Below, in pieces: positions 54,703 to 60,994 of a stretch of 64,000 bases of DNA (position 1 is the first letter of the stretch; every line of letters begins with the position of its first letter). The stretch spans positions 64,001 to 128,000 of the forward strand of contig CAXXUA010000015.1 in assembly GCA_963663765.2 (NCBI GenBank). The letters are read 5' to 3'. The stretch comes from Candidatus Poribacteria bacterium (GTDB lineage: Bacteria; Poribacteria; WGA-4E; WGA-3G). A program made the translations under genes and the position numbers. The notes below the pieces were generated by a model, which was not told the DNA's origin, made no database searches, and worked only from the letters and a program-made list of their open reading frames with translations.

Positions 54703-56328
54703 ATGAGACGTTTCGGTACAACGGGTCCAGTACATCCTGAAAAGCATTATGTTGTCAGACGTTCTGAGGAGCTTGATGACTTCATTGCACGCGTCAAAGA
54801 TGGACGATATATCGTTATATTTGCCCCACGACAGACAGGTAAGACTACCTTTTTTCGCAATGCACTTGATGAAATTGCAGACAGCGATCCAGTTTACTTC
54901 CCAATTTCATTGAATTTTGAGGAATATGTTGGTGAATCTTTATCGGATTTCTACAACAATCTTACTCATGATTTAATTGATGAAATTGAATCAGTTTTGA
55001 AAAAAAGAGAATTGCTAACAACAAATACACTTCAAGGTCTAATAGAAAATTCTCAATTAACTAGCCACCAAACAATGCGTAGATTCTTTGGGGATTTAGA
55101 AGAAAATTTAAGAGTAGATTACGGTGTTTACCGTGTAATTCTAATAATAGACGAATTTGATGGTATCCCACAAGAGGTATTAGCAGGTTTTCTTCATTCA
55201 CTCCGTCGAATCTATGTTTCAAATTCCACATCAAAATGTCCTCACAGTGTCGGAATAGTCGGTGTAAAAAGTATTGCACAACTCAACTATGACCGATCAA
55301 TCTCTCCATTCAATATCCAAGATGAGTTTAACCTCCCAAATTTTACACTTGTACAGGTGAATGAACTCCTGCAACAGTACACGGAAGAAGTTGGTCAACA
55401 CTTTGAATCAGAAGTGATTGAATCTATCCATAAACAGACTGCAGGACAGCCTTTCCTTGTCAACCGACTGGCACAAATATTGACTGATGAAATGGACATA
55501 CCTAAGACCGAAACAATTACTTTGACGCATTTCACAACAGCACATAATAAACTAATTCATGAACGTAATACCAATATTGACCATCTAACAACAAATTTCC
55601 GTAGAAATCGACGCTTTGAAAAAATTCTGATGCGAATAACAGCCTTTGATGATGGTTTACCTTTCAACTTGCGTGATGACCAAATCAGTGAACTCGCAAC
55701 CTTTGGGGTAATAAAGCAAGGCGTGGACGGTATGTGTGAAATTGCTAATCCCATATACTTTTATTGTATTGTTCAAACATTTAAACCGACAATAAATGGT
55801 TTGGAGGAAGCATATCACCCAGAAGACACCAGAGACGGTTTTCTTGATTACCTATCAAATACTGGACATATTGATATGAACGCATTGCTTGATAATTTCA
55901 GAGATTTCATCGCTCGATCGGGATTTAATATATTACAGGTCCCTGACACACCCCAGGAATCTGTTGGACGCCATTTACTTCTTGCCTACCTTGAGCAGTT
56001 TGTTCTGTTAGTGGGTGGATTTATGCATATTGAAGTGCAAACAGGACACGGTAGATTGGACTTACTCATCACACACAAGCATCGAAAATACATCGTTGAG
56101 ACAAAAGTTTGGAGAGGAGAAATCAGTTATCAGAAAGGATTGAACCAACTTGCTTCATATCTAAGGTTAGAAAATGCAACCGAGGGGTACTATGTAGTCT
56201 TTGATCACCGCACAAATCCAGAACCACGCTCTGAAAACCATGAAATTGATGGCTATAATATACGAAGTTATGTAATACCTGTAATGCAGAAACGACCCTC
56301 AGTTGGGAGTCTTGACGTAAAAAAGTGA
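54703..56328 (+). CDS. AAA ATPase (AAA_35-like) with C-terminal PD-(D/E)XK nuclease domain
   Basis: Walker A APRQTGKT, Walker B LIIDEFD, SPFNI, GQPFLVN; C-terminal EVQTGHGRLDL...IVETK...QLASY. Confidence 0.88.
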   Translation: MRRFGTTGPVHPEKHYVVRRSEELDDFIARVKDGRYIVIFAPRQTGKTTFFRNALDEIADSDPVYFPISLNFEEYVGESLSDFYNNLTHDLIDEIESVLKKRELLTTNTLQGLIENSQLTSHQTMRRFFGDLEENLRVDYGVYRVILIIDEFDGIPQEVLAGFLHSLRRIYVSNSTSKCPHSVGIVGVKSIAQLNYDRSISPFNIQDEFNLPNFTLVQVNELLQQYTEEVGQHFESEVIESIHKQTAGQPFLVNRLAQILTDEMDIPKTETITLTHFTTAHNKLIHERNTNIDHLTTNFRRNRRFEKILMRITAFDDGLPFNLRDDQISELATFGVIKQGVDGMCEIANPIYFYCIVQTFKPTINGLEEAYHPEDTRDGFLDYLSNTGHIDMNALLDNFRDFIARSGFNILQVPDTPQESVGRHLLLAYLEQFVLLVGGFMHIEVQTGHGRLDLLITHKHRKYIVETKVWRGEISYQKGLNQLASYLRLENATEGYYVVFDHRTNPEPRSENHEIDGYNIRSYVIPVMQKRPSVGSLDVKK

Positions 56329-56337
56329 GGATTGAAA

Positions 56338-57099
56338 ATGCAATTCTGTACAGTGTGTAAGCAATTTGCTGACTATGAATATGATATTGCCCTGTCCAAT
56401 GGAAACCACTTACATTCTTCTTGTCTAATCAAGCTCCAAATGCGTGAAGATGAAATTGAGGTTAAACTACGAAGACGAAGCTCACAATTGATTCTGTCTC
56501 TCTTTGCAAAGTCTGAAGCTGTAGAAAGAGATGTTATATCTGAGGAAGAGGTGAGAAATTTATCAACTGAACTGACAAAAATAAAGAACACTTTAACTTC
56601 CATTTTTGACTTCTTTCCGATTTGTCCGCCGGATTGGGATGAACGTAAACGCTACCTTATCCAACTGAACGGTTCGATCTGTTTCAGTTGTGAAGAAGAA
56701 GGTGATGTTTTTCTGATACATGAGATTCCTTTATGTGAATACGGAACGAATGAGTTGGATAACCTTGAATTGATTTGTAAACCTTGTCATGAGAGTATGT
56801 ATGGTAAGAGTGATGTTTTTGGGAACTTTACCCTGAATTCGTCCCAATCAGAGTTTTCAGAGCAAGTGGCAGAAATCCAATCTGCTATGCACAACAATCA
56901 GAGAATTCGATTTGACTATAAAAAACCGAAAGCTAAGACGTGGATGACGCGCGTGGTTGTCCCAGAACGTTTACTAAATATTCCTAACAGTCGCGAGTCT
57001 GGTGAGACATTGTGCGTTGAGGGATACTGCGAATTGCGTCAAGCTAACCGGGTTTTTGCACTTGAACGGATGCAAGATTTAGAAGTAATAGAGGGTTAA
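56338..57099 (+). CDS. Zn-finger + HNH-like + WYL-domain protein
   Basis: CTVC...HSSC; CFSC...IHEIPL...GTNELDNLELICKPCH; IRFDY...TRVVVP...EGYCELRQANRVFALERM; GAGGA RBS overlaps the upstream stop. Confidence 0.82.
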   Translation: MQFCTVCKQFADYEYDIALSNGNHLHSSCLIKLQMREDEIEVKLRRRSSQLILSLFAKSEAVERDVISEEEVRNLSTELTKIKNTLTSIFDFFPICPPDWDERKRYLIQLNGSICFSCEEEGDVFLIHEIPLCEYGTNELDNLELICKPCHESMYGKSDVFGNFTLNSSQSEFSEQVAEIQSAMHNNQRIRFDYKKPKAKTWMTRVVVPERLLNIPNSRESGETLCVEGYCELRQANRVFALERMQDLEVIEG

Positions 57100-57271
57100 T
57101 CGGAATCGCTGATTTCGCGGATAAGACAGCAGCATTAGATGGCATGGTATGAGATAAGCTTTAACTAAGCAATACCACCTCAAGCAGGGACCAATCCATG
57201 TAACCTGTGATTCAGTCTAAACCGATGATATTAACCTGTATATTTCCGTGCGATGCTGTGCATTTCACATC

Positions 57272-58855
57272 TTATACGGTTTGCAAGTTGCTTATAGAAA
57301 GCAACCAGGGTTCATCTACCAAAGCACGCAAAAATATCCCGCGTGCGCCATTCAAGTCTCTGTCCATCTTGAGTCCCATGCTATCTTTTATTATCTTTCG
57401 TCCACCGAGTGATTTTCTAATCTCACCATTCCACGACACTGTTTTTGATGTGTATGCTTCACAGACATCAATGACGAGACATCCAGTCTCTTTCGCTTTG
57501 TGCTTTAGAAAATGTTTGAATCTGTAGTGCGACAGTGTCAACATTTGTCGGGCAGACTTCTTGTGTAGTTTGCGGTTTCCACGCATTACCATATCTGAAG
57601 TCTCAAAAGTAGGGAGTAGGATAATATCAAAGGTATCCACAAGGAAACGTGCTATTTTATGATGCAACTCGTCAACAAGATATCTGATACGTTTTCTGAT
57701 GCGATTTGCAGCACGTCTCATATTCTTGCGTGATTGTTGTGTCGCTTTTATTGCACGGGATAAAAGATTATCAAGGTATGAACAAAGTCTTTGAATCCGA
57801 TTGATAGCATGGTGTCCAAGCCATCCGAAACCACGCTCATGGAAATATGTGAGGAATGTTCTCACGCCAGGGTCTAAAGCAACAACACTTCCGTTTGGTT
57901 TTCGCTTCGGAGTTGTCACAGTATAGGAAACACAGAGATAGTATTTATCATTCTCTTTCACGAGGCGTGAGTCACAGATATTATCAGGTAACATCTCTGA
58001 CATTTTGAGATCACCAAGCACTGTGTGATAAACACCGCGAGGTTTTATAGCAGACTTTGGTATGAAAATACTATCTGATGGATGACGTTTGGATTTGAAA
58101 AAAACAGACTGATATTGACCTGTTTTCTTGCATTTTCGCTTTGCTTCTCGGACAGCAATACAAGCGTCACGGATAGCAACAGATTTCACTTGATACGGTG
58201 TTTCTTTGCTCCAATCAGGAAGATCGTGAAGAATACCTGTTTTTATCGCTTTCCAATTCGCTTTTGTGTCTGTTTCGTTCAACAAAGCAATTGTTTTATT
58301 ATAAGTAAAACGTGCTGTGCCAAACCACTGACGCAGTGTTTCACGTTGTTCTGTTGTCGGATAGACTCTTATCTTCTTTGATTTTGTCACGGTAACTTCG
58401 GAGTCCGTGCATTCTGTAACTGAAGACGTGCAGGATTGCGAGAAGATCCGACGTGAGTTCTTCTTGCGGACTGTGTTCTGTTTGATCGAGAACCACGAGT
58501 TCGCCACCGTTTTGTTCAATGAGGTATTGTATAAGGTCGATACCGAAGCGGGCGAGTCTATCCCGATGGGCAATAACAACTTTGAGCTTATCACCTTGCA
58601 TAAGCCGTTCCAATAAGGTTCTAAGCCCTTTTCTTTTGAAGTTGATTCCGCTTCCGATGTCTCGGATAACTTCTGCTTCAGGGTAGATACTTCGCATATA
58701 TTCAACTTGTCGTTCAAGGTCTTCTCTTTGCTTTGTGCTGGATACTCTGCAGTAGCAAACAGTTGCAATTGATTTGGATTTGCTTTTGATGTATCCGTCA
58801 ACATCATAGCGTCTGTGTCCGCCTCCTGTGCGGATAATATCAATCTTTCCTTCAT
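57272..58855 (-). CDS. tnpB: TnpB RNA-guided nuclease, rearranged-RuvC (pro-Fanzor-like) type
   Basis: KIRVYPT, WFGTARFTYN, ALDPGVRTF, IILLPTFE, VCEAYTSKT, DRDLNGARGI; GGAGG 7 nt before ATG 58855 (alternative GTG at 58390). Confidence 0.9.
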   Translation of the reverse strand: MKERLILSAQEADTDAMMLTDTSKANPNQLQLFATAEYPAQSKEKTLNDKLNICEVSTLKQKLSETSEAESTSKEKGLEPYWNGLCKVISSKLLLPIGIDSPASVSTLYNTSLNKTVANSWFSIKQNTVRKKNSRRIFSQSCTSSVTECTDSEVTVTKSKKIRVYPTTEQRETLRQWFGTARFTYNKTIALLNETDTKANWKAIKTGILHDLPDWSKETPYQVKSVAIRDACIAVREAKRKCKKTGQYQSVFFKSKRHPSDSIFIPKSAIKPRGVYHTVLGDLKMSEMLPDNICDSRLVKENDKYYLCVSYTVTTPKRKPNGSVVALDPGVRTFLTYFHERGFGWLGHHAINRIQRLCSYLDNLLSRAIKATQQSRKNMRRAANRIRKRIRYLVDELHHKIARFLVDTFDIILLPTFETSDMVMRGNRKLHKKSARQMLTLSHYRFKHFLKHKAKETGCLVIDVCEAYTSKTVSWNGEIRKSLGGRKIIKDSMGLKMDRDLNGARGIFLRALVDEPWLLSISNLQTV

Positions 58856-58928
58856 TTGCCAACCTCCGTAAATGGTCAGGTGTATAATCCAGCAGCTCAC
58901 TTGCTTTGCGCGCTGATACATAAGTCAT
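58341..58928 (-). CDS. tnpA: IS607 serine recombinase TnpA
   Basis: MerR-like HTH, RTGGGHRRY, YCRVSSTKQ, DIGSG, HRDRLARFG. Confidence 0.95.
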   Translation of the reverse strand: MTYVSARKASELLDYTPDHLRRLANEGKIDIIRTGGGHRRYDVDGYIKSKSKSIATVCYCRVSSTKQREDLERQVEYMRSIYPEAEVIRDIGSGINFKRKGLRTLLERLMQGDKLKVVIAHRDRLARFGIDLIQYLIEQNGGELVVLDQTEHSPQEELTSDLLAILHVFSYRMHGLRSYRDKIKEDKSLSDNRTT

Positions 58929-58934
58929 GTATAT

Positions 58935-58963
58935 AGTATCACATAAATATCAAGGAATGTCAA
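58935..58963 (-). promoter_or_regulatory. tnpA promoter, probably leaderless transcript
   Basis: TTGACA-17-GATACT with TG extension, 6 nt before the ATG; no RBS. Confidence 0.55.
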
Positions 58964-59274
58964 GAAATATGTAGATATTTAGATACTGTCACTCTACCCT
59001 CAATTCAGATAACACCTTGCAAAAACTTTTCATACCAGTTCAAACAATACCCTTGACCCACACATCAGCACCCGCTAAAATACACCTATGCAGAAACTCA
59101 ACCACCGACCCACAAACAGATCCGCGACGACTACGCCACGTTACAACAATACGTATATAGCTATAAGTTAGAGACTTAATAAACAATAATCAAGGAATTT
59201 CAACAGAGTTATTTTTCGTGAAATTTGAGTATTAGTTTACATTTCAACAATTTACCATATTGGCTGTCATGTAA

Positions 59275-60994
59275 CCTACACTCCGCAGTTATGGATCTGG
59301 AAAATAGACATTTTTTACTTCTATGCCTAAAATGTTGATGATTTGTGTGTGTATTTCATTTAAATTTAATATAGACCTTTGTATATGTTCGTTTTGTTCT
59401 ATCAATAATACATCAACGCCTTCAAACATTTGAAAAATACGCCTGAGTGTTGGTTTTTGCGTGGGTTTACCAACTTGGTTAGGTATTGTTTGTTCTTGTT
59501 TTTTTAGCTCTTGCCGAACCCATCGTTCGGCAAGAGCGTATACAAGTAAAGAAAGTCCCATCACCATCAGTAATGCCATAATCCGCTGGGGTTTTTCAAG
59601 ATATAGACTATCGGCAAAGAATAAGGGGTCTTTCAAAAACCGAAAACCGCGTTCTACAGACACGTTCTGTGCTTTATATGCTTCAAGGATAGTCGCATCG
59701 TCAAGTAAAGTTGTATCCAGTTCATTGGTAGCTAAGACAAATCGGCCTTTGCTGCGTTTGAGTTTTTCAATCGTTTCTATATCATCAATAACTTCACCTT
59801 CAACCCGATAACGAAAATGTGTCGGTTTATCTGTCTTTTTGGGGCGTCCCGATGTAGTGTAATGTGGAACAGAAATAATGGAGAAACGAAGTTTATGATA
59901 TTTCCATGACTTGGCAAGGACTGTTGCCGCAGCTGCCGCAGCTGTATCGGTCTCATACGTTTTATTTTGTAAACGATTGAGTGATGTTTGTGCAGTTGTC
60001 TGTGCTTTGTCAATCTTTTTTACTAAAGTTGCCACTTCACGATGATACGCAGTTTGTGAATAAACAACTAACCACCTTTGTGGAACATCCGCATAGGTGC
60101 TATCTACTGATAGATAACTATATCCATCAAGAGATGCTGGCTGCATATCTTCAGTCGAAATAGTTTGGTAGAGTTCTTTGACAGCTTTGAGTGTTTCCGG
60201 CACACGCGTAATAAAACGCACATCACGCAGCTTCGCAATGTTTTGTGCTGTATAAAGCGCACTATCCGCTACAAAATAAGGTGCATCACTGCCACGCAGT
60301 TGAGACAAATATTCTCGGATCGTGTTGGGAAAACTTGTTTTATCAGACTGATTTCCATCAAGTGCTTTGAACCATACAGGGAACTGAGACCGATAAGAAC
60401 AGAGAAGTTGAACTACCACTTGTTTGAGATCCGGACGCTGATCGCGACTATACCCGTGGGTAATGTGAATAGCGTGTTCATCAACTGTTTCGGTATCATA
60501 GTTCCCCTGAAAACTAAACGTGGTGCTATCCAGATGAACAAAACGATGGTCAATCTCATAAGTTGATAATGCTTTAGAAGCAACTGTTGCAAAAAGTTCG
60601 GTAACACCATTTTCATAAAGTGTATCTAAAGCACGCCCAAGACAATCGTCCGTGAAATCGGCAGCACAGAGATGAGGGCGTATCAATAGATCCACCGGTT
60701 TATTTGAAAAAAACTCAGGTGTCAAGTAGAGTGGGCGTGAGACAAAGCCTAAAGCATTCAAGATCATAGCAACAACAGATTCACCCACTGAAACTTTCCG
60801 TTTCGTTGGGGAAATAAAAGTATCAATAGTGTTTATCAAGTCAATACGATCACATACACCAGCTACTATTCCGAGGTGATCTAAACGTTGTGTTGTAAAA
60901 GTAGATTGAGTGATGATGTTATACTCCTTATATAAAGATATAAAGAGTATAACATAAATACTTAAAATCCGATTAAACAACTGCGGAGTGTAGG
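59275..60994 (-). mobile_element. Intact IS1634-family IS
   Basis: Perfect 16-bp TIR CCTACACTCCGCAGTT; 6-bp TSD ATGTAA. Confidence 0.93.
59289..60980 (-). CDS. IS1634-family DDE transposase (start uncertain)
   Basis: LDHLGIVAG, HLDSTTF, HGYSRDQRPDLKQ, GNQSDK, VADSALY, VERGFRFLKDP. Confidence 0.93.
   Translation of the reverse strand: MFNRILSIYVILFISLYKEYNIITQSTFTTQRLDHLGIVAGVCDRIDLINTIDTFISPTKRKVSVGESVVAMILNALGFVSRPLYLTPEFFSNKPVDLLIRPHLCAADFTDDCLGRALDTLYENGVTELFATVASKALSTYEIDHRFVHLDSTTFSFQGNYDTETVDEHAIHITHGYSRDQRPDLKQVVVQLLCSYRSQFPVWFKALDGNQSDKTSFPNTIREYLSQLRGSDAPYFVADSALYTAQNIAKLRDVRFITRVPETLKAVKELYQTISTEDMQPASLDGYSYLSVDSTYADVPQRWLVVYSQTAYHREVATLVKKIDKAQTTAQTSLNRLQNKTYETDTAAAAAATVLAKSWKYHKLRFSIISVPHYTTSGRPKKTDKPTHFRYRVEGEVIDDIETIEKLKRSKGRFVLATNELDTTLLDDATILEAYKAQNVSVERGFRFLKDPLFFADSLYLEKPQRIMALLMVMGLSLLVYALAERWVRQELKKQEQTIPNQVGKPTQKPTLRRIFQMFEGVDVLLIEQNEHIQRSILNLNEIHTQIINILGIEVKNVYFPDP

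Follow-up and report, generated by a model that had tools for sequence, protein, structure and literature searches.

The eukaryotic Fanzor genome editors are proposed to descend from bacterial nucleases called pro-Fanzors. Those described from cyanobacterial IS607 elements (pro-Fanzors/TnpB2) accompany a serine-recombinase transposase, TnpA, and are marked by a DPG motif and a shifted RuvC-II glutamate (main text of Yoon et al., Nucleic Acids Res 2023, PMC10711439). Fanzors themselves acquired N-terminal extensions, according to the article text of PMC10432273, and the literature, in the article texts cited here, treats the N-terminal domain as an acquisition of Fanzor2. In the mimivirus Fanzor2 ApmFz2, the article text of PMC11832414 assigns residues 1-53 to a disordered nuclear localisation signal and residues 53-130 to an N-terminal domain that is absent from other TnpB structures and is termed unique to Fanzor2; residues 65-91 (RuvC-R) complete the RuvC fold and contact the guide RNA, and residues 109-130 (the thumb) clasp target DNA beside the target-adjacent motif. 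Here we examine an IS607-family element in a 64,000-nucleotide stretch of a Candidatus Poribacteria bacterium genome (GenBank assembly GCA_963663765.2, contig CAXXUA010000015.1, positions 64,001 to 128,000 of the forward strand; hereafter the window, to whose numbering all coordinates refer). We consider it likely that this element is a pro-Fanzor IS607 in which 515 nt are read in two frames, so that an N-terminal domain overprinted on the transposase gene forms part of a long nuclease starting at ATG 58855.

All features of the element lie on the minus strand. The tnpA gene (58341-58928) encodes a serine-recombinase transposase of 195 aa that matches Pfam Resolvase over residues 57-178 (E 6.6e-19) and, weakly and under Pfam's own cut-offs, a MerR/HTH_17 helix-turn-helix (HTH) at residues 5-43. 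The +1 frame over this gene contains a single stop, TGA 58927-58925, which overlaps the tnpA ATG (as ATGA); past it the frame is open through to the tnpB stop at 57274-57272. The +2 frame has 16 stops. Read from ATG 58855-58853, the open frame gives the long tnpB (pro-Fanzor) open reading frame (ORF; 57272-58855) of 527 aa plus stop. The stretch 58341-58855, 515 nt, is then dual-coding: frame 0 encodes TnpA, and frame +1 the N-terminal domain of the nuclease together with the first residues of its core. The ORF lister starts the same frame at an earlier ATG, 58921, and gives 549 aa. Pfam places HTH_OrfB_IS605, OrfB_IS605 and Cas12f1-like_TNB all within the last two thirds of the long ORF, and these usual TnpB domains begin only at residue 179 when the frame is read as 549 aa, which leaves residues 1-155 of the 527-aa form as an extra part.

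Could the second frame be open by chance? We held the TnpA protein fixed and either permuted synonymous codons within tnpA or drew codons from the usage of the window. The protein has 39 dipeptide sites able to create a +1 stop. Permutation gave a mean of 6.5 such stops and the window-usage draw a mean of 12.4, and none of the 20,000 trials under either model was stop-free. The open +1 frame is not a chance occurrence. A first-pass annotation, made from the letters of the window, had described a tnpB frame without stops over nearly all of tnpA, a GGAGG 7 nt before ATG 58855, and a 527-aa product with 515 nt of dual-coding DNA, and had judged such a frame improbable by chance. We reproduced each of these observations, and the two null models bear out the judgement.

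The open frame is widespread among relatives. The survey covered 85 loci with TnpB identities of 48-100%: the five copies of this genome, plus the 80 best of 132 relatives, which come from Poribacteria, cyanobacteria and a single Lysobacterales metagenome-assembled genome. For each locus we determined the length of open tnpB frame preceding the core. This length reaches 140 codons or more in 74 of the 85, which answers the first-pass proposal to look for an open alternative frame across homologous tnpA genes. Among the 11 exceptions (L021, L025, L044, L051, L057, L071, L072, L073, L076, L081 and L088), nine are either at the edge of a contig or match TnpA only in part or in split form; the other two have a full TnpA match, L021 with four stops in the tnpB frame and L025 with a disrupted tnpB match. 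The closest relatives among those found are Poribacteria assemblies, with TnpB identity up to 94%, followed by cyanobacteria at about 55-61% (Moorena, Okeania, Anabaenopsis and Calothrix being the nearest outside Poribacteria). Repeating the permutation on 62 open loci gave expected means of 2.0-6.7 stops, of which only the size of the expectation is informative, the loci having been preselected as open.

Classical IS607 elements are organised differently. We compared five from plasmids, of Selenomonas, C. jejuni (ISChh1), Acinetobacter, H. pylori (IS607) and Alteromonas, leaving out Nostoc H1, Allochromatium H3 and Lactobacillus H16, which have no full tnpB beside tnpA. The five share the gene order and transposase type of our element, and in four of them tnpB is in frame +1 relative to tnpA, but the +1 frame of tnpA is closed in all five by 13-30 stops. 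Their annotated genes overlap by 38, 14, 0, 26 and 0 nt, and the tnpB frame is open for merely 1-18 codons upstream of the annotated start. The brief overlap that the first-pass annotation took as the usual state thus holds for the five classical elements compared.

Synonymous variation in tnpA is suppressed, the other pattern that had been put forward for checking. In a pairwise test, this element was compared with 14 relatives, 11 of them at 55-62% TnpA identity. In these 11 pairs, identity in the +1 frame over tnpA was 0.34-0.47 against 0.25-0.31 expected from permuting synonymous codons (z 2.3 to 6.8), whereas the same test on the non-overlapped tnpB core gave z values of -1.0 to 2.9. An excess in tnpA with little in the tnpB core indicates that synonymous sites are saturated in tnpB and not in tnpA. 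We then profiled synonymous-site identity along tnpA in 24 sequences (224 pairs below 70% protein identity). The ratio of observed to expected identity is 0.83-0.87 in codons 1-20 and 1.1-1.2 in codons 21-80, and it rises to peaks of about 2.0: 2.03 in codons 111-120, where the second frame reads KVISSKLLLP, and 2.07 in codons 141-150, where it reads VANSWFSIKQ. The profile therefore places the start of the constraint at the position of ATG 58855 and its greatest strength under two short motifs. Both peaks coincide with motifs that are ordered in an AlphaFold2 model of the nuclease.

The same arrangement occurs on viral contigs. A 43-kb IMG/VR contig of 29% GC carries a 680-aa relative (L093) whose first 206 codons overlap a 221-aa Resolvase and HTH ORF, again with the nuclease in frame +1. 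The L093 tnpA has 37% GC and 0 stops in the +1 frame vs 20 in +2; permutation gave a mean of 6.1, with 0 of 1,000 trials stop-free. TnpA and domain motifs are in the same codon-for-codon register in the window and in L093: TnpA NFKRKGL lies over domain KEKGLEPYW in the window and KEKGFYPFW in L093, RDRLxRFG over LLLPIGID and LWLPLETD, and VVLD/MVLD over SWFSIK and SWFSIQ. A scan of viral contigs with a 12-sequence alignment (A3) returned 79 IMG/VR loci, many labelled GVMAG and not de-duplicated. A domain-only profile matches the nuclease ORF in 55 of these 79. In 47 of the 55 the domain overlaps a TnpA-like ORF, to which the nuclease is in frame +1. Over the domain match, 46 of these 47 loci have no stop in the frame of tnpA; in the remaining one, L163, the best domain match is short, starts upstream of the TnpA match and has three stops there. 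These giant-virus-contig IS607 Fanzor2-type nucleases differ from ours in their length of about 520-780 aa (as stop-to-stop ORFs), in their insertions in the middle of the protein, in keeping their zinc-finger cysteines and in being AT-rich.

What happens to the domain when the transposase frame is lost? Eight of the 55 domain-bearing viral loci have no overlapped tnpA. One lies at a contig edge, and the other seven have 4-17 stops in the would-be tnpA frame; PFW..WLP, SWFS or both persist in these seven. Three loci without tnpA (L103, L161 and L172) keep both motifs, P(F/Y)W..(L/W)(F/W)(I/L/M)P and SWF, and two more (L108 and L116) keep the first. This shows a domain that is, as judged from its sequence, kept as protein where the transposase frame is gone. 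The other 24 of the 79 viral loci (numbered L102-L180) have no match to the N-terminal-domain profile; six of these have a TnpA-like match, and several are cut by contig ends. Searches of the viral contigs with single long proteins (P0158, P0094, P0129, P0090 and P0104) gave no matches, nor did P0158 against metagenome contigs.

Where does the nuclease begin? A Shine-Dalgarno-like box, GGAGG at 58867-58863, stands 7 nt before ATG 58855; in the tnpA frame it encodes the Arg-Arg of the HTH motif LRRLANEG. Relatives have AGGAG or AGGAA at the equivalent position before a conserved ATG, and in many Poribacteria relatives a stop two codons before the equivalent of ATG 58855 closes the frame. These comparisons support the long form from ATG 58855 as the conserved reading, and we infer that translation starts at this codon. 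The earlier ATG 58921, which would give 549 aa, we rejected as the start, because only the closest relatives share it.

An alternative is that the open frame serves a TnpA-nuclease fusion, initiated at the tnpA ATG and shifted by +1 into the tnpB frame, in the manner of the OrfAB products of IS1 or IS3. In this copy the +1 frame is indeed open from the second tnpA codon, and in one Poribacteria locus (L035:1964-2540) the first ~80 TnpA residues are in frame with the nuclease extension in one 190-codon reading. L035 is a single locus, however, and its TnpA match is split in two frames, probably by an indel that mimics a fusion. Most relatives have the +1 frame blocked up to a point shortly before the conserved ATG, and tnpA codons 1-20, which both a fusion and the ATG 58921 form would use, show no synonymous constraint. 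We regard a frameshift fusion as very improbable and continue with a nuclease that would start at ATG 58855.

The extra part of this long form contains two short conserved motifs. Our AlphaFold2 model of the 527-aa form has a mean predicted local distance difference test score (pLDDT) of 76.3, with 122 of the 527 residues below 50. Residues 1-78 (58622-58855) form a leader that is predicted to be disordered (pLDDT <50) and is weakly constrained (ratio 1.1-1.2); in cyanobacterial relatives its head, over the TnpA DNA-binding helix, is lysine-rich. Residues 79-97 (EPYWNGLCKVISSKLLLPI; 58565-58621), over TnpA LERLMQGDKLKVVIAHR, make up a helix motif, with a predicted helix at residues 84-92 (mean pLDDT ~86). 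Across 48 bacterial sequences, L93 and P96 do not vary, and conservation is 90% or higher at K76, P80, Y81, W82, C86, S91 and L95. Residues 119-128 (NSWFSIKQNT; 58472-58501), over TnpA GELVVLD, make up a strand motif with the invariant Trp121, and the model has strands at 113-115 and 123-128. Residues 129-155 (VRKKNSRR...; 58391-58471) are a basic, Ser/Thr-rich linker of low pLDDT, with seven Lys/Arg in residues 129-160; the linker would sit at the position of the Fanzor2 thumb. The model is of low confidence over 98-118 and 133-153; from residue 155 onwards, in the core, it is confident.

One residue of the extra part is conserved to the same degree as the catalytic residues. Seven columns are invariant in an alignment of 54 full-length sequences: W121, N186, D328, E466, T469, R499 and D500. 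Trp121, in the extra part, is thus as invariant (54/54) as the catalytic residues D328, E466 and D500. A search of 1.84 billion representative proteins with the 177-residue stretch upstream of the core alone returned 498 proteins with E<=1e-3, of which 101 have E<=1e-10; many are 500-700 aa long, with the stretch at the N-terminus. Among these is a eukaryotic protein, of 671 aa from the fungus Amoeboradix gromovi (EukProt), which matches the extension with E 9.7e-11. In the relative P0023 (706 aa), an insertion of ~140 residues follows a duplicated KSKKI-like motif and separates the N-terminal domain from the TnpB core.

The best solved relative of the whole nuclease is the mimivirus Fanzor2 (ApmFz2, L79, PDB 9b0l), with E 2.4e-25 for the single sequence and 2.7e-80 for a full-length profile. 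The profile alignment reaches from the core into the N-terminal part, from residue 76, and pairs SWFS with NSWYE at 9b0l chain residues 82-86. With the AlphaFold2 model as query, Foldseek ranked 9b0l first (E 8.8e-24), and VIA-align superposed model residues 78-517 on chain residues 53-518 (Z 28.0, 411 residues, rmsd 4.9). This alignment starts at the first ordered residue of the 9b0l chain; all other TnpB/Cas12f rows start at model residue 146-159. The catalytic triads correspond (D324/E467/D501 in ApmFz2, D328/E466/D500 here; Glu467 is given as the catalytic glutamate in the article text of PMC11832414), and the model predicts for our protein, as seen in ApmFz2, an N-terminal domain with a disordered head and short ordered parts. 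They differ in that ApmFz2 is viral and its head is a nuclear localisation signal, whereas our protein is bacterial and lacks the four zinc-finger cysteines. Position and predicted structure support a correspondence between the extra domain and the N-terminal domain of the mimivirus Fanzor2. The first-pass annotation had suggested that the extension resembles the N-termini of Fanzor2 and giant-virus nucleases; the 55 of 79 viral loci, the A. gromovi protein and the model alignment to 9b0l agree with it, with one caveat taken up below.

Several observations weigh against our interpretation. The caveat just mentioned is that domain-only profiles, bacterial (A2) or bacterial and viral (A4), did not find 9b0l among solved structures at E<=10; because of this, the link to the solved domain rests on position, the full-length alignment and the predicted fold. 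Part of the +1-frame similarity is a by-product of conserved TnpA motifs, an example being LFATAE over the YCRVSS active site. Except for L093, the zero-stop counts of the 62-locus permutation come from loci preselected as open. RNA-library contigs from four runs and two studies cover 57257-58995, none extending past the element ends, and one 850-nt contig covers the entire tnpA and the start of the core (sets X2 and X3 share most of their contigs and may be a single data set). These contigs fit transcription, but no strand, start, RNA ends or protein can be read from them, and DNA carry-over is possible. Two further points, a potential start codon near the core and an excess of identity in the +2 frame, bear on rival explanations.

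The potential start codon is GTG 58388-58390, the classical short-form start, from which a TnpB of 372 aa could be read. Both isoforms may be made, the long one from ATG 58855 and the short one from GTG 58390, with differing activities or ratios. Most Poribacteria loci, all five copies included, have a GTG at core position -2 or an ATG at -1 or -2, and classical IS607 tnpB starts at the same place. Against this, no GGAGG-like box precedes GTG 58390, and the codon, kept in the Poribacteria lineage, is not a start codon in most cyanobacterial relatives. We scanned the 74 open loci from the SWF motif to eight codons into the core and found no ATG in 38 and no ATG, GTG or TTG in 20. In these 20 loci, therefore, the nuclease could be made solely as the long form. 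An invariance of W121 equal to that of the catalytic residues also speaks against a separate short form, and we think it unlikely that two isoforms are produced.

The +2-frame excess concerns the possibility that only the short TnpB is real and that the open frame and the constraint are due to codon bias or to a signal within tnpA at the RNA or DNA level, such as a tnpB promoter or a structure. In the same 11 pairs, identity in the +2 frame is likewise above expectation (z 0.9 to 5.3), as it would be under any nucleotide-level constraint; this excess lies below the +1 excess in 10 of the 11. A promoter-like site, TTGGCA, 17 nt and TATTAT, lies inside tnpA at 58862-58834. Yet the permutation that preserves the gene's own codon bias yielded 0 of 20,000 stop-free trials, an AT-rich viral locus likewise has the frame open, viral genes that have lost tnpA retain the motifs, and the constraint peaks lie under the two motifs that fold in the model. 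The 20 loci without a start codon for the short form argue in the same direction. A purely non-coding origin of the open frame is, in our assessment, extremely improbable, and dual coding of a long nuclease remains our preferred interpretation.

The nuclease core carries the marks of pro-Fanzors. Asp328, in the DPG motif of RuvC-I (57872-57874), Glu466, the shifted RuvC-II glutamate directly before the TNB segment (57458-57460), and Asp500, in the RD motif of RuvC-III (57356-57358), are each invariant in 54 of 54 sequences, as is R499. The DPG motif reads VALDPGVRTF, with P329 and G330 at least 90% conserved in the 54 sequences. Glu466 stands in VCEAYTSKT and, where the full-length profile aligns to 9b0l, belongs to a conserved E-x-Y/L-T-S/T-K-T block; the classical glutamate position has no majority residue in the alignment consensus. 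By these sequence marks, DPG and the shifted catalytic glutamate, the nuclease is a pro-Fanzor. It shares both, as well as the serine-recombinase TnpA, with the cyanobacterial IS607 pro-Fanzors/TnpB2 of PMC10711439. Those elements differ in being cyanobacterial and not from Poribacteria, and the main text describing them contains neither the 155-residue domain nor dual coding. We do not file the element as Fanzor2, because its closest loci are Poribacteria assemblies and not a eukaryote or a eukaryotic virus.

The nuclease departs from its superfamily in one respect. The TnpB/Fanzor superfamily motif is D ... [TS][TS]-x-x-[C4 zinc finger] ... RD (article text of Bao and Jurka 2013, PMC3627910). 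Here D, TS and RD are present, but the EAYTSKT...MDRD segment has no cysteines. Across the 59 bacterial loci compared, the TNB/zinc-finger segment (57356-57460, residues 466-500) has no cysteine in 53 and one in six, whereas longer relatives of 570-700 aa, mostly viral or eukaryote-like, nearly all keep four to six. The TNB fold is probably kept without zinc, because Pfam Cas12f1-like_TNB still matches the sequence (E 8.8e-14), and this looks like a zinc-less subclade of pro-Fanzors. Superfamily membership of the protein rests on the Pfam and fold matches.

The element as a whole spans 57222-58998 (1,777 bp), with boundaries from copy comparison: five genomic copies are 99-100% identical, their common part is exactly 57222-58998, and their flanks differ. 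The left end, 58998, starts with GG (GGTAGAG), and the right end, 57222, terminates in ...TATCATCGG. GG at the termini is a trait of IS607 elements, and the five copies here have common GG...CGG ends. We found no inverted repeats of at least 18 nt in 56900-59400, including between both element flanks. The element has a serine-recombinase TnpA with an HTH, a tnpB that follows tnpA in the same orientation, and several copies whose ends are identical and lack terminal inverted repeats. These features make it an IS607-family insertion sequence, and it looks active.

Short non-coding parts remain at either end. Between the tnpB stop and the right end lie 50 nt (57222-57271) that are identical or nearly so among the five copies, and the terminal TATCGG is also present in cyanobacterial relatives. 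This region would be the expected 3' part of a guide-RNA scaffold, with the guide read from the flank beyond 57222. An Rfam scan of 56900-59300 at E<=1 gave no family match, only two chance-level rows (NsiR1 and mir-254) far under the gathering scores. At the other end, a consensus scan found a promoter-like site, TTGACA, a 17-nt spacer and a TG-extended GATACT (58935-58963; 10 of 12 matches). Promoter-like sites are not enriched in the region (8 vs 5.1 +/- 2.6 in shuffles), and the single match is weak. The site ends 6 nt before the tnpA ATG, and a tnpA message made from it would therefore be leaderless or nearly so. Deletions of 3 nt at 58345 and of 4 nt at 58124 appear in RNA-library contigs of run X1 (each in one contig, at a depth of ~5-6), so variant copies are present in that sample.

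The element sits among other mobile and possibly defensive genes. Short dispersed repeats of ~55-80 nt lie in both flanks (59204-59274 and 57103-57182); they match elsewhere in the genome at 80-93% identity (~26 and ~6 of 40 rows listed) and are not inverted copies of each other. An IS4-type transposase of 563 aa (DUF4277 and DDE_Tnp_1) lies at 59289-60980 on the minus strand, 290 nt from the left end of the element. Beyond the right end, on the plus strand, a 541-aa AAA_35 ATPase (54703-56328), with a PD-(D/E)XK_9 match slightly under the Pfam cut-off, is adjoined by a 255-aa protein (56332-57099) with a WYL domain and a weak HNH match; the right end of the IS607 element is 122 nt downstream of this WYL gene. 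The AAA_35 and WYL pair may be defence-like or regulatory.

How might the two readings work together? Frame 0 would yield the serine-recombinase TnpA, and frame +1, entered at ATG 58855 behind GGAGG, the first 155 residues of the 527-aa nuclease. The resulting domain would consist of the disordered leader (residues 1-78), the helix in PYW..ISSKLLLP, the strand in SWFSIK with its invariant tryptophan, and then the basic linker. By analogy with the RuvC-R and thumb of Fanzor2, it may brace the RuvC lobe and help to hold or open the target. The nuclease, together with a guide RNA from the 3' end of the element, could promote retention or copying of the element by cutting empty sites.

Which of the two readings is the older? 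The resolvase frame is universal in IS607 and the +1 frame is closed in all five classical elements, and because of this we take the domain to be the younger reading, which probably arose inside tnpA by overprinting. The first-pass annotation had raised such an origin, and the distribution of the two frames fits it. We go further, with somewhat more confidence than doubt, in proposing that the whole N-terminal domain of pro-Fanzors and Fanzor2 was born de novo by overprinting of an ancestral IS607 tnpA, before entry into giant viruses and eukaryotes. The lysine-rich head of the leader may later have come to be used as a nuclear localisation signal.

Our full-text literature searches found no paper on TnpB overprinting or on a Fanzor N-terminal extension that overlaps TnpA. 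Within their article texts, PMC3627910, PMC10711439 and its preprint, PMC11832414, PMC10530073, PMC10432273 and PMC13565253 do not mention an overlap of nuclease and tnpA. Our data indicate that the domain is already present in bacteria and that its coding sequence is the transposase gene in another frame. If a survey or construct lets pro-Fanzors begin at the classical TnpB start, 155 residues would be lost, the invariant tryptophan among them. Any estimate of how fast tnpA evolves in this clade has to take the second frame into account. Dual coding couples nuclease and transposase codon by codon, and the arrangement permits mutations that are silent in one frame and disruptive in the other. 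If our interpretation is true, this would be a rare, datable case in which overprinting created a working enzyme domain within a mobile element of cells and not within a small virus.

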